Assembly (NCBI GenBank): GCA_951406725.2
Contig: OX597821.1
Location: 82,398,001-82,462,000 of the forward strand
Reading direction: 5' to 3'
From: Octopus vulgaris
Taxonomy: Eukaryota
Length of the DNA stretch: 64,000 bases
This document shows, one piece after another, positions 25,916-39,724 of this stretch. The stretch's first letter is position 1. Each line of letters begins with the position of its first letter. The position numbers were made by a program, and so were the translations under genes. The notes under the pieces were generated by a model, which did no database searches, was not told where the DNA came from, and saw only the letters and a program-made list of their open reading frames with translations.

Positions 25916-26122
25916 GTGACCGCGTGTGTATTGTTGGTGATTTTTTTTCTCCGTCTTCCCTGCCTTGGATCTTTCCTTTTCCTATGTTTCTGACGAAGAG
26001 CTCCACTCGAAACGTTAAATCCTCCTTCCTTCTTTCCTTTCCTGAGCGTCCAATAACACTATACTTGTTCCACGTCCTCGCATTGTTGTGTTTTCTCTTT
26101 GTGTTTTCATGTTTGGATTAAC
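25916..26122 (+). mobile_element. About 205-bp HHR-carrying short element (family E)
   Basis: Homologous to 38156-38360 (-), 38968-39165 (-), 22156-22231 (partial) and 63905-63992 (partial); ends TTTGGATTAAC at (TA)n. Confidence 0.85.
25986..26020 (+). ncRNA. Minimal type I hammerhead ribozyme
   Basis: GUUU-CUGACGA-A-GAG cucca CUC-GAAA-C-GUU^AAAU; loopless palindromic helix III ACGU. Confidence 0.8.
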
Positions 26123-26260
26123 TACATACATATATATATATATATATAATATATAATATATATAATTTGCTGTTCCATGATAGAGAATTCAACAAAAAAC
26201 GTACACCATCTGGTGAGAAATAAATATTATTTATTTAAAGGGCACAACACATGTATTTAA

Positions 26261-26314
26261 GCACTACTAATAGTTTCATATGTTGAGAAATACTCAAACA
26301 TATTCTTCAGGTTC
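26261..26314 (-). ncRNA. Type I hammerhead ribozyme
   Basis: GAAC-CUGAAGA-AUAUGUUUGAG uauuu CUCAACAUAU-GAAA-CUAUUAG-UA^GUGC. Confidence 0.8.
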
Positions 26315-26578
26315 AAACCACATATCATAACGAACTAAAAAAATTGAATAATAGAAGAAATGTAAAAAAAAAAACTGAGAAGGCAGCATATAGAAAATGC
26401 AGAAAGTAAAAAACAGAAAAAGGAAAACAAAAAATGGAAAATGAAAACAAAAACTAAAATATAAAAAATAAAAAGTAAAAAGGTAAAAGAGTTATCCTCC
26501 TTTGACCTTATATGATAAGGCTGGAAAGATATCAAGTTAGTCAAGAATAGGCAGAATTTTCCAATTCTTTGAAATACA

Positions 26579-27153
26579 CAGACATGCAGGAAGTAAATAG
26601 ACACCTTTAATTTTCAAAATTTCTGATTTAAGTGTCTTAATATGTTTTCAGCGGTGCAGAATTTACAATGTAATTATTCTTTTTCATTCCAGGTGCCATT
26701 ATATTGAACATTTGCAAAGAGTGACCATGCTACGCACAAAAAATTCAGCAGAACTGTCAGATTTTCAAAGAGGTCATATTATTGGGCAATCTGAGGCTGG
26801 TCTTAGCCAGTGAAAAATTGCCAAAAAATCTTCAAATTCCTCTTGCTACTGTTAATAGAATTATAGTGCAATTCAAGAGCCAAGGAAAAGAATCAACAGA
26901 TTCTCATCCCAGCCAACCTGGGCCCTCAGAAAGGTAGCTTTGCTGTTTGAAGAGAATTGTGGAAAACGAACCCCATTCAAAGACTTCTGACATTGCAAAA
27001 CAACTAGAAGTTAGTCCAAGAACCTGTGTTAGATATCTGCATAAGCTTGGGTATTATGGACGAGCAGCTAGAAGAAAACCTCTCCTTCAACCAATTAATA
27101 TCAAATAAAAGATTTTGAAAATTAAAGGTGTCTATTTACTTCCTGCATGTCTG
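26579..27153 (+). mobile_element. Internally deleted Tc1 element with intact about 42-bp TIRs
   Basis: TIR CAGACATGCAGGAAGTAAATAGACACCTTTAATTTTCAAAAT at both ends; N-terminal HTH remnant from 26727 (ELSDFQRGHIIG...LHKLGYYGRAARRKPLL) with stops. Confidence 0.9.
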
Positions 27154-27184
27154 TATATCTCTTCCATGCTGTTATTTTTTTTTA

Positions 27185-27311
27185 ACCCTGCCAAGGAGGT
27201 TATATTTTTGCCGGCGTTGGTTTGGAAAATTGGGCAGTTTTCAGCGTGCGTGTATATGGGGGGAAAATGAGCTGCTTGGCGGAGGTCTGCGCTCTCCGAG
27301 TGCTTTTCTAG
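27185..27311 (+). mobile_element. Miniature Helentron/HINE-type element
   Basis: Subterminal IR CCTGCCAAG / CTTGGCGGAGG, 3' hairpin GCGCTC-TCC-GAGTGC, terminal TTTTCTAGTT. Confidence 0.7.
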
Positions 27312-27682
27312 TTGCATAATTTAGATGATAACATATTCACTGCATCCTGCATATATAGGTAGAAAGGCAGATAAACACAAATAGGCTTAATGTATATATT
27401 TTCTTGACAATACAAAATACAGAGTATGGAAAAAAGAAATAAAGTAAATTTACAGAATTATCTTAATAGCTTTTCTCAAGCTCACCATGTCTTATGCTGT
27501 AACCACATTTGTATATAATAAAAACCCATGATGTCATGGATGTGTATGATAATTATTAGTTCCTATGGATTTGTTAGGCAATGACAGGTTAACCTCAGTG
27601 GAAGAAAAATAGTAAATGCCAAACAAATCCATTGGAACTGGTGATGTTACACACACCTCTGACATCATGGGTATTATTATGT

Positions 27683-36214: not shown

Positions 36215-38084
36215 CACCATAAAAACCCAAGTAATTTACAGACTTTTTTTGCAAAAACAAAAATAAATTTTAGTGGGTGCATAAAATTACATGAGTAGAT
36301 CATTTCTAGAATTTTTTTAGAAATATTTTTCTTGAAAAAGGATGTATAAATGTAAACATTTGTACTGAAAGTTGACTCATTTAATATCAGAATAGGTTTT
36401 TACAGAAAAAATAGTATGAAGTTGACGTTTATTTATACTGGACAGTATAAAGGGGTAAAGACCCCCTTCGGTCATGAATGACCATGGGATTGCACCTAGA
36501 AAGTTACCCTCCTAGACACAAGTCCGGGCAAGGTTGTTTATGGAAGACCAGCAGTCGCCCATGCATACCAGCCTCCCCTCTCCACGCCACCAGTGTTATC
36601 CAAGGGAAAGACAAAGGTCGATACAGCTTGGCACCAGTGACGTCGCAACTCATTTCTACAGCTGAGTGAACTGGAGCAACGTGAAATAAAGTGCCTTGCT
36701 CAAGAACACAACACGCAGCCTGGTCCGGGATTTGAGCTCACAACCTCACGATCGTAAGCTCGACGCTCTAACCACTGAGCCATGCGCCTTCAATGCTTAC
36801 ATTTTCTGTATAAATTTAATAAAACCATTAAAGGGTTAACTACTGGGCCATATTTTACATTGCTTAGAGTTTCTATCCATCGCAATGGAGCCCAGCAATT
36901 TCCTCAGATAGATCAGTTTTTCTCTGCTTAAGAAGTCTAGCATACGTTTGCCTCCAGGAAGCTATTGCTTGCTTTCTCTGCGTTTGGACAATAAAATTCC
37001 TCACCACTAACTACCAGCCACTACCTGCTCTTACTGCATCTGACACCGACAACAACATCATAATTCATCCTTGCGCATGTAAACTTACTAAGTGAATATA
37101 ACTTAGCATTCCTATAGAAACCTTCATTTACCTTGTACGATGTTTAATGTCATTTCACATTCATGTTGAATTGTGCAGCAATCTTATCTTCTCTTTATAG
37201 AACACTTGTAATGTATGTATTACCAGTTCTTTTGGTATCGTAGATTTTTGCTATTCTTGTTTATGTCTCCTCACAGACGTGTACATTCTAACAAGTCGCT
37301 TCTTAAATTTCGCACCTCTCTTGTTCAATAAACACTGAGTTAAACTTGCGAAGCTGTTTATTTTCTCTTTTTGATTTCTAATGTTTATTTTAGTGGGTTA
37401 CCAAACTATCAGTTTGGTCTCCCGACTAAAACAGTAATGACAAATTTTAAAGTTTGCTTGACATTTTATAAGTGTGAAATTTCGATACTCCGTATCAAAG
37501 GTTCCGACAAGAAAAGGCAGAAAATCAGAGCTTGAGACAAGAAGGCACTTTCGACCAATTAGAATTCTGTTCACATAATCAGTTTCATCAGTCACCTTTC
37601 TCTGTCAGTTGAGTAAAGTGTCATCCAAACTGATGTTTATTGGTAATTAAACTTATTTTGCAACACTTGTGCATATTTATCAGTTTTGTTTTTGTTGATA
37701 AGAATTATAAACAACTTTTCCTGCGATCGTGATTTGAGAAGACATATGCTAAAGATCGGATATAATCTCTTGTGGGTAAGAAATGTAAAATAAAGTTTAT
37801 CATAAAGAACACAAACACTTTGTAATTTAATAGCTTTCAATGTGATACCTGTTGAACAGAAATTATTTTTATTTAGTGAAAATTTAATAAAATCTAATCA
37901 TAAGTAAGTGAAATTCTGCTAAACACAAATAAATTGAAAACCTTTTTCCCCTGGCCATATCGGCAATTCTGTAAACTTTTGGGTGTGAATTTTACACAAG
38001 TAGAAGTTTATTTAAAAAATTTTTATCCTGAAAATCACCTGTGTAAATTACACAGGTGCACAAATTACATGGGTTTTTATGGTA
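36215..38084. mobile_element. pogo/Tigger-like non-autonomous TIR element with nested insertions
   Basis: Ends ACCATAAAAACCCAAGTAATTT / AAATTACATGGGTTTTTATGGT, repeated AAATTACAY subterminal motifs; no transposase recognised. Confidence 0.55.
36452..36792 (-). mobile_element. Meta-domain-like tRNA SINE, little diverged
   Basis: TGGCTCAGTGG A box, B-box-like GAGCTCAAATCCC, CGTGTTGTGTTCTTGAGCAAGGCACTTTA. Confidence 0.8.
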
Positions 38085-38155
38085 TATGTATATGTGTATA
38101 TATATATATATATATATAATACATATATATATATATATATATATATATATATATA

Positions 38156-38360
38156 GTTAATCCAAACAAGAAAGCACAAAAAAACACAACAACGCGAGGA
38201 CGTGGAACAAATATAGTATTATTAGATGCTCAGGAAAGAAGGAAAGAAGGAGGGTTTAATGTTTCGAGCGGAGCTCTTTGTCGGAAACATAGGAGAAGGA
38301 AAGATCCAGAGAAGGGAAGACAGAGGAAAAAAAAATCCCCAACGGTACATACATGGTCAC
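38156..38360 (-). mobile_element. Family E element with a decayed HHR core (CCGACAA)
   Basis: Homology to 25916-26122; lies between (TA)n and (GATA)n. Confidence 0.85.
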
Positions 38361-38574
38361 ATAGATAGATAGATAGATAGATAGATAGATAGATAGATAG
38401 ATAGATAGATAGATAGATAGATAGATAGATAGATAAATAGATAGATAGATAGATAGATAGATAGATAGATAGATAGATAGATAGATAGATAGATAGATAG
38501 ATAGATAGATAGATAGATAGATAGATAGATAGATAGATAGATAGATAGATAGATAGATAGATAGATAGATAGAT
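38361..38574. repeat. (GATA)n tetranucleotide microsatellite, about 53 units
   Basis: Direct inspection. Confidence 0.98.
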
Positions 38575-39068
38575 ATGCACATTGCTTTATGTTGAACAAT
38601 TGATATGTCTTGAAAGATTTGAAACAAAGGACACTGCTTGCATGATGGATTTTATTGAAGCTGAGGCTGAGAATTTGTCTTGCAACCCTAGCTTCATGGC
38701 CACAGTGATGTGATGCTCACATAGCAAAACAAATTCTCTGCCTCAGTTGCATTAGGCAAGTGATGTCCTTCATTTCCAGTCTTCCAAGACATGCCTGCTC
38801 ATGGAAAAATTTTACTTTACTTGAAAACTGGAGAAGGTTGGTGACAGAAGGTAGCATTGAAAATTTTTCATCTCCACAAATTCTGTCACTACGAATTCTG
38901 TCCATCCCATGGAAATGTGGATGTTAAAATGACTGTATATATATATATATATATATATATATATATAGTCAATCCAAACATGAACAAGCAAGAAAAAAAC
39001 AACAATGCGAGGATGTGGAATAAGTACAGTGTTATTGGACGCTCAAGAAAAGAAAGAAAAGAAAGAAA

Positions 39069-39103
39069 ATTTTACGTTTCGAGTGGAGCTCTTCATCAGA
39101 AAT
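39069..39103 (-). ncRNA. Minimal type I hammerhead ribozyme (family E copy, element 38968-39165)
   Basis: AUUU-CUGAUGA-A-GAG cucca CUC-GAAA-C-GUA^AAAU; helix I outer pair is A-U here and G-C in the 38.25 kb copy. Confidence 0.85.
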
Positions 39104-39724
39104 AGAAAAAGTTCAAAGAAAGGAAGACGGAGAAAGAAAATCACCAACGATACACATGCGGTCACATATTGAAATGTGTATGTGTATATATATATATATA
39201 TATATATATATATATATATATATATATATATGTGTGTGTGTGTGTGTGTGTGTGTGTGTGTGTGTACATATATATATATGTGTGTACATATACATACATA
39301 CATACATACATACATACATATACATATACATATATATATATATGATGATGATGATGATGATGATGATATATATATATATATATATATATATATATATATA
39401 TATATATGTATATATGTATGTATGTATGTATGTATGTATGTATGTATGTATGTATGTATGTATGTATATGTACACTCACACACACCCACATATCATATCA
39501 AATCAAAGTTGCCAGAAACTCAGAGATCTGATTTGGCTAATAATTCTGATATAATATATATATGTGTGTGTGTATATATATATATATATATATATATATA
39601 TATATATATATATATATATATATATATATATATATATATATATATATATATATATATATATATATATATATATATAAATAAATGAAAGAATGGAGTTGAA
39701 CGACGATTTAACAAAATTCCTTTA

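Follow-up and report, generated by a model that had tools for sequence, protein, structure and literature searches.

Hammerhead-bearing short repeats of Octopus vulgaris and their relationship to a Penelope-like retrotransposon

The window analyzed here is a 64,000-nucleotide stretch of the Octopus vulgaris genome (GenBank assembly GCA_951406725.2, contig OX597821.1, positions 82,398,001 to 82,462,000, forward strand). It contains several copies of a short repeat, here named family E, which carries a minimal hammerhead ribozyme motif and which we assign, on the evidence given below, as the pseudo-long terminal repeat (pLTR) of a Penelope-like retrotransposon (PLE). The unit is 207 bases long, and all three full copies named in a preliminary description of this DNA (25916 on the plus strand, 38156 and 38968 on the minus strand) were recovered, with pairwise identities of 76–85% (159/209 to 178/209). 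The partial or diverged copies of that description could also be identified, as two 3′ fragments and one old diverged relative, but neither fragment carries a hammerhead. The terminus TTTGGATT(A/G)A adjoining (TA)n was present in all window copies except the relative at 57.2 kb, which lacks the TTTGGATTAAC end, so that the common 3′ terminus claimed earlier holds for all copies but one. The features, annotated as argued below, are as follows (ORF, open reading frame; RT, reverse transcriptase; EN, endonuclease):

25916..26122, plus strand: solo pLTR of a PLE, U4-core subfamily; (TA)n on the flanks, homology reaching ~7 nt farther 5′; the same sequence brackets an RT-EN ORF elsewhere
25986..26020, plus strand: 35-nt minimal type I hammerhead, predicted cut between 26016 and 26017
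38156..38360, minus strand: solo pLTR, C4-core subfamily
38254..38288, minus strand: decayed hammerhead (U4C, G8A and ACAU), predicted inactive
38968..39165, minus strand: solo pLTR, third subfamily variant; homology reaching ~9 nt farther 5′
39069..39103, minus strand: intact minimal hammerhead with a GUA cleavage triplet and a 3-bp helix II
22155..22231, minus strand: 5′-truncated pLTR copy, element positions 128–207, without hammerhead
63907..63991, plus strand: 5′-truncated pLTR relative, positions about 112–206, without hammerhead
57228..57390, plus strand: old diverged relative (E=1.4e-4), core broken (no GAAA)

In copy 25916, the motif reads in order helix I GUUU, core CUGACGA, an extra A, helix II, GAAA, CG, U, U and helix I AAAU, with a 4-bp helix I and a palindromic ACGU (26012–26015) in which A15.1-C-G-U16.1 is self-complementary (numbering as in PMC4209133, together with the usual hammerhead convention). 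The preliminary description had rightly seen that the hammerhead is minimal (it is of type I) and that, as its helix III is palindromic and loopless, a partner should be required; this fits the published minimal hammerhead (min-HHR), which is inactive as a monomer. The 35-nt motif with its A-CG-U helix III is intact in copies 25916 and 38968, whereas in copy 38156 both the core (CCGACAA) and the palindrome (ACAU) are broken. Variation among E copies was mostly CpG-type decay; judged from the aligned copies, G8A and the palindrome break in copy 38156 are of this kind, and U4C there is a subfamily trait.

The assignment of E came from longer copies elsewhere in the genome. Two of the first 30 genomic matches had a common sequence upstream of E, which was traced through a CA-rich untranslated region (UTR) to coding sequence for RT and a GIY-YIG EN. 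E was found on the same strand ~0.4–1.8 kb downstream in 18 of 20 EN-region loci (20 examined of 40 scored), and just upstream in 18 of 30 loci chosen by ORF start, the remainder being truncated nearer the ATG. The upstream E continues through TTTATATA, which follows the upstream pLTR in 15/15 of those listed, and then through a ~270-nt 5′UTR to the ATG. Among the 18 ORF-start loci with E, 8 contained E, 5′UTR, RT, GIY-YIG EN, 3′UTR and E in one stretch, 4 were internally deleted E...E forms, and 6 had no downstream E in the stretch. Pfam searches matched RVT_1 (E=1.5e-5) and GIY-YIG (E=6e-4 and 2e-3), the translations show ADKGG, YIDD, CX4CXXC and GIY-YIG-like motifs, and the linker joining RT to EN reads CSRSRCNTC, which fits the CX2-5CxxC of Neptune/Nematis. 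The hammerhead sits inside the pLTRs of ORF-bearing copies, both pLTRs of several of these copies carry U4C, and ORF-linked pLTRs and solo copies have the same U4 and C4 subfamilies. On the basis of these sequence comparisons, E is almost certainly the pLTR of a PLE whose ORF encodes RT, a Cys linker and a GIY-YIG EN.

A search for PLEs sharing this terminus had been proposed in the preliminary description, and such a PLE was found. The view of E as a self-contained, unusual stand-alone element of ~205 bp has to be given up: long copies continue upstream into the 3′UTR and ORF and downstream into the 5′UTR and ATG, and the motif class has been published for PLE pLTRs (PMC4209133). As the literature already contains both the motif class and its PLE connection, the finding as first stated is ordinary, and E adds a member to a known family rather than a new element type. 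That E is not a short interspersed nuclear element (SINE) derived from tRNA appears correct; the 5′ end of E is PLE sequence. No tRNA-related family appeared among the 150 listed of the 272 Rfam matches for the window (no dedicated tRNA scan was run), nor did a hammerhead family; the matches were miRNA-like, to microsatellites.

Rearranged forms were also observed. Inverted pLTRs were seen in L116, next to an ORF that is truncated, and in L114, at the 3′ end; a further inverted or partial-tandem form is present in L033, and UTR sequence precedes the 5′ pLTR in L120, L122 and L136. In L033 (4612–4917), pLTR fragments are joined tail-to-tail in inverted orientation, and the junction carries a short duplication, which fold-back priming would be expected to leave. 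Internally deleted copies (pLTR, 5′UTR, ORF fragment, pLTR) occur in L333, L337, L339 and L329 and are possibly non-autonomous derivatives. Some candidates for complete arrangements were rejected: of the same-strand hammerhead pairs ~1.1 kb apart on C1 considered as pLTR-internal-pLTR, one is two insertions and the other resembles a local duplication, and in L109 the copy on the upstream side ends in (TA)n ahead of an ORF that is truncated, which was read as serial insertion. Divergence within subfamilies was about 3.5–5%, and every ORF seen was broken. Assembled contigs of four sequencing runs presumed to be RNA showed no recurrent intron-like junction; they do not enter the evidence here.

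The ends of E were analyzed in 84 copies chosen by a motif at positions 123–141. The 3′ ends were sharp, with TATATA or TTTATA next in 56 of the 70 parsed, and genomic copies end at the AT-rich TTTATATA motif of the template, adjoining (TA)n. Any target-site duplications would be masked by these microsatellite flanks. The 5′ ends were scored in 79 copies (5 of 84 were excluded owing to internal deletions or misplaced ends): 3 lay at 102–123, 5 at 63–101, 11 at 26–62, 10 at 6–25, 44 at −12 to +5, 3 at −13 to −37 and 3 farther. An 18-nt window therefore holds the stop of 44 of the 50 copies that reach +5, and only 3/79 extend into the CA-rich UTR. The 5′ boundary coincides with a TCATTC/TTCA motif, which we take to resemble an initiator.

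Based on these ends, the following model is proposed. Transcription would start ~10 nt upstream of the unit at the initiator-like motif, the EN of the element would nick (TA)n, and the nicked 3′ end would anneal to UUUAUAUA of the RNA. When primed in the 5′ pLTR, reverse transcription would then give a ~215-nt solo copy, the RT running off at the RNA 5′ end, whereas priming in the 3′ pLTR would give the rare ORF-bearing copies. Because the cut site lies 106 nt upstream of the priming site and is spanned by most copies, most templates would be uncut or religated; largely uncleaved templates would fit an attenuated ribozyme, with its weak helix I, GUU triplet and, in the main subfamily, U4C. Such a run-off mechanism for the solo copies seems probable from the distribution of their ends. 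It has been reported that Penelope has an internal promoter (PMC2377424), that PLE promoters reside in pLTRs (PMC6765202), and that purified Poseidon protein begins reverse transcription at an internal RNA position downstream of the hammerhead and uses unprocessed RNA as template (PMC11167929).

The same ends could also arise if solo copies were 3′ pLTRs with ordinary 5′ truncation at an AATAT pause or microhomology hotspot, or products of pLTR-pLTR recombination, in which case the boundary at −10 would not be a transcription start. ATAT and GTGT microhomology with the flanking microsatellites was common at 5′ junctions, and solo pLTRs of Adineta have been attributed to recombination or deletion (PMC3846280). 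However, many junctions start at TTCAAAAT, upstream of ATAT. Moreover, recombination products should extend farther more often, because the 3′UTR is kept upstream of the 5′ pLTR in ~6 of the 15 full-length copies listed, whereas extension beyond −12 was found in 6/79 anchor-selected copies. We consider this explanation unlikely.

For the full explanation, namely that E is a PLE pLTR, that solo copies are short run-off products of reverse transcription primed on nicked (TA)n, and that the hammerhead is weak and acts only as a dimer, we estimate a probability of about 0.82. Several points weigh against it. First, 2 of the 20 EN-region loci had no E. Second, all Pfam scores were under the curated gathering thresholds, one of four queries had no match, and Pfam searches with four fragments of locus L036 gave no match; no uninterrupted ORF was present in 18 loci, the longest frame from the ATG being 252 aa. 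Third, minimum-energy folds of both monomer and dimer did not contain the hammerhead, a second palindrome (GAGCUC) competing with it; these folds were judged uninformative. Finally, the pile-up at −12 to +5 could instead be an RT pause or an ATAT microhomology hotspot, the start site of reverse transcription in an anole element is not homologous to the cut DNA (PMC11167929), unlike the pairing proposed for E, and RNA start, cleavage and priming are all predicted.

The excess of solo copies raises the question of whether E could be an independent non-autonomous RNA of the retrozyme or SINE-like type, whose tandem or solo copies would be transcribed, cleave themselves as dimers, circularize and be retrotransposed in trans by the PLE protein. 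Solo copies far outnumber ORF-linked ones, as judged from the few that reach the UTR, one locus has three same-strand copies ~330 bp apart, and pLTR-derived retrozymes have been described (bioRxiv 10.64898/2026.07.22.740005). However, the run of three copies is split by long (TA)n tracts and resembles serial insertion, and the fetched loci, which are not a genome-wide scan, contained no head-to-tail E array, near copies being split by (TA)n or unrelated DNA. In addition, the ends of the copies correspond to the UUUAUAUA site and the putative RNA start rather than to the cut site or random circle permutations, and the U4 and C4 subfamilies of solos also occur on ORF-linked pLTRs. An independent retrozyme thus appears very improbable, and we prefer E as a pLTR of the PLE. 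Elsewhere, neighbouring copies on one strand have the appearance of serial insertion, a later copy having entered the (TA)n tail of one already present. In L330 (6708–7568), three same-strand pLTR copies ~330 bp apart, with (TA)n between them, lie at the 3′ end of a full-length element; such a quasi-tandem array could be a route to retrozyme-like repeats.

A working tandem dimer of the 38.2- and 39.0-kb copies had also been suggested. These copies are identical at 159/209 positions and belong to different subfamilies, and the 600 nt between them consist of (TA)n, other sequence and (TATC)n; by this comparison they are separate insertions. Because copy 38156 has decayed and the pair represents separate insertions, a dimer of these two is unlikely. 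A dimer would more likely bring together both pLTRs of one long transcript, or different RNAs, perhaps aided by protein as in PMC11167929.

We then compared the hammerhead among subfamilies and related families. C4 was found in 42 of 43 copies with helix I AAAC and U4 in 5 of 6 with AAAU; overall, C4 occurred in 49 of 65 parsed cores from the 84-copy motif-selected sample, whose anchor may favour the C4 subfamily. Judging from this sample, the commonest E subfamily carries a U4C core, departing from the consensus core. Covariation of helix I among the three window copies, as claimed earlier, did not hold: GUUU/AAAC versus GUUU/AAAU is a one-sided G-C/G-U change that tracks subfamily, and AUUU/AAAU of copy 38968 falls at an 8-nt alignment gap, so that these changes are not compensatory. 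Compensatory helix changes were seen only between families and not within E. The abundant sister family has an A6U core (CUGUNGA), helix I CUUU/AAAG and helix III ACGU (4 matches in a 400-kb random sample), and a third family has helix I ACAC/GUGU, a 5-bp helix II with a long loop, and an ACGU helix III; together with E (GUUU/AAAC), all keep A-CG-U. U4C or A6U variants may already be listed by Lunse et al. (RNA Biol), who reportedly described dimer cleavage of PLE hammerheads. Examples of the two families are:

L182:2937-2976, minus strand: sister-family A6U copy
L044:717-756, minus strand: sister-family A6U copy
L068:2091-2130, minus strand: sister-family A6U copy
L006:763-810, minus strand, and L006:852-899, plus strand: third-family copies in inverted arrangement
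L199:2251-2298, minus strand: third-family copy

Among 10 representatives of the three families, 94% of cells are paired and both sides vary in 7 of the 10 pairs, and their covariation exceeded 500 shuffles in 3 of 5 measures and all slid controls. It should be noted that these representatives were hand-picked by a structure-based pattern from only three families and thus comprise few independent events. C3, G5, G8, A9, GAAA and A15.1-U16.1 were invariant across them and older relatives. Two other motifs were observed in the window. A different minimal-hammerhead-like motif at 41929–41960 (minus strand) has CUGAUGA, an extra A, a 7-bp helix II, an extra A before GAAA and a palindromic ACAGCUGU helix III, and is likely the pLTR of another PLE family. 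At 53348–53382 (minus strand), CUGAUGA...GAAAC with a poor helix II lies between inverted repeats and may be a chance or decayed hammerhead.

If the hammerhead cuts in vivo, some genomic copies might start at the cut site. Four anchors were used, and at each we tallied the copies with a 5′ end that abuts TATATATA no more than 30 nt away; only minus-strand tallies enter, as those of the plus strand overlap. Just 3′ of the predicted cut site, 272/5,692 (4.8%) were such ends, compared with 191/10,298 (1.9%, sister family mixed in) over the hammerhead, 144/6,508 (2.2%) in the next 3′ window, and 156 of an estimated 6,750 (2.3%) in the upstream pyrimidine tract. The frequency just 3′ of the cut site was thus about twice that of the other windows (4.8% versus 1.9–2.3%). 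The 31 distinct loci among the matches listed start at about +1 to +18, and 0/31 lie at −9 to −2 (p=1.6e-5 against a uniform model, but p=0.03 against the measured background, with 3.5 expected). On the other hand, the directly scored sample had no excess (3/79 in 21 nt versus 5 in 39 nt), the four anchors sample different subfamily mixes, and stalling of the RT at a structure would look alike, all of which weigh against cleavage as the source. The excess is possibly a fossil record of in vivo cleavage, although these counts leave cleavage as its cause doubtful. By analogy with published min-HHRs, the E hammerhead likely cuts only weakly, and as a dimer.

Alternatively, the hammerhead could be a non-cleaving vestige or a protein-binding structure, with the excess arising where the RT stalls, either on the structure or on the pyrimidine tract. 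The C4 state of most parsed cores is relevant here, as U4C reduces in vitro activity considerably (PMC3088659), and the core of the sister family has A6U. Furthermore, the excess is spread across +1 to +18 rather than placed at +1, it is absent from the direct sample, and for the anole element PMC11167929 reports no RNA-seq reads that start or end at the cut site. However, U4C is compatible with viroid infectivity (PMC3088659), both helices covary and the core positions listed above are invariant across three families, and the upstream pyrimidine tract had no excess (about 2.3%, an estimate). We regard a vestige as a tentative possibility; it concerns the ribozyme only and is compatible with the pLTR assignment. 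A picture in which genomic copies record the PLE RNA life cycle, with a run-off peak, (TA)n priming at UUUAUAUA and a 5′-end excess from the cut site, is likewise speculative. If true, the genome would hold evidence, in this excess, that the minimal hammerhead of a PLE cuts a small percentage of transcripts in vivo even when its core has U4C, and that PLE RNA can still serve for reverse transcription after being cut.

Analysis of abundance revealed 1,086 matches to the exact 34-nt hammerhead pattern in the 2.8-Gb genome and none to a reversed control, so E is far above chance. Sampling 40 stretches of 10 kb at round coordinates yielded 14 profile matches, 7 of them of the close family, which corresponds to ~49,000 copies, and motif counts gave ~26,000 copies genome-wide. 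From these two rough estimates, the genome is estimated to hold ~25,000–50,000 copies of E, mostly solo and in (TA)n runs. Short hammerhead 'SINE-like' repeats in this genome are to be annotated as solo PLE termini. The in vivo role of PLE hammerheads is called unclear in the literature; with the high copy number, countable 5′ ends at the cut site and U4 and C4 subfamilies side by side, it becomes testable from a genome alone. With regard to other repeats, the window contains many copies of a ~420-bp family with 85–90% identity (for example, 4785–5205, 20406–20804, 28818–29241 and 46387–46794), as well as several further families of short repeats and some long imperfect palindromes (for example, 16169–16800).

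A search of the literature revealed no description of the E family and no 5′-end analysis at the cut site; Repbase, Dfam or the supplementary alignments of PMC4209133 may include E. A recent octopus repeat annotation includes Penelope-like families, and the word 'hammerhead' is absent from its available text (PMC13282606). According to PMC4209133, min-HHRs in PLE pLTRs have a 4–5 bp helix I, a nucleotide between 9 and 10.1, G10.1-C11.1 and a palindromic 15.2–16.2; monomers did not cleave and dimers cleaved weakly, and most motifs are dispersed singles, likely tied to truncated PLEs. The E motif agrees feature by feature (core, extra nucleotide after A9, G10.1-C11.1 and palindromic 15.2–16.2), and differs in a helix II of 3–4 bp versus 7–8 bp in Schistosoma, and in U4C in the main subfamily and A6U in the sister family, where the published core variant is U3-A8.

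Neptune/Nematis-type EN+ PLEs resemble the E element in a single ORF with RT followed by GIY-YIG, a CX2-5CxxC linker, pLTRs, inverted and partial-tandem structures, and microsatellite targets (bioRxiv 10.1101/2021.04.23.441226; PMC3846280). The E element differs by its long CA-rich 3′UTR; a 30–40 nt tail, which is an optional PLE feature, was not seen by eye in the displayed 3′ flanks of 84 copies. Poseidon PAc of Anolis is similar to E as modelled here: its reverse transcription begins at an internal site of the RNA on the downstream side of the hammerhead, unprocessed RNA serves as its chief template, and its targets are AT-rich (PMC11167929). Its start lies inside the ORF at the non-homologous site mentioned above, whereas the stop point of E, in the 5′UTR and ~270 nt short of the ATG, agrees in sequence with the (TA)n target. 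Finally, animal non-LTR retrozymes (PMC7229834; bioRxiv 10.64898/2026.07.22.740005) are, like E, short non-coding hammerhead units related to pLTRs and present as dispersed monomers. They are defined by head-to-tail tandem units, which the fetched E loci lack, whereas in this genome E continues to serve as the pLTR of a family that bears an ORF.

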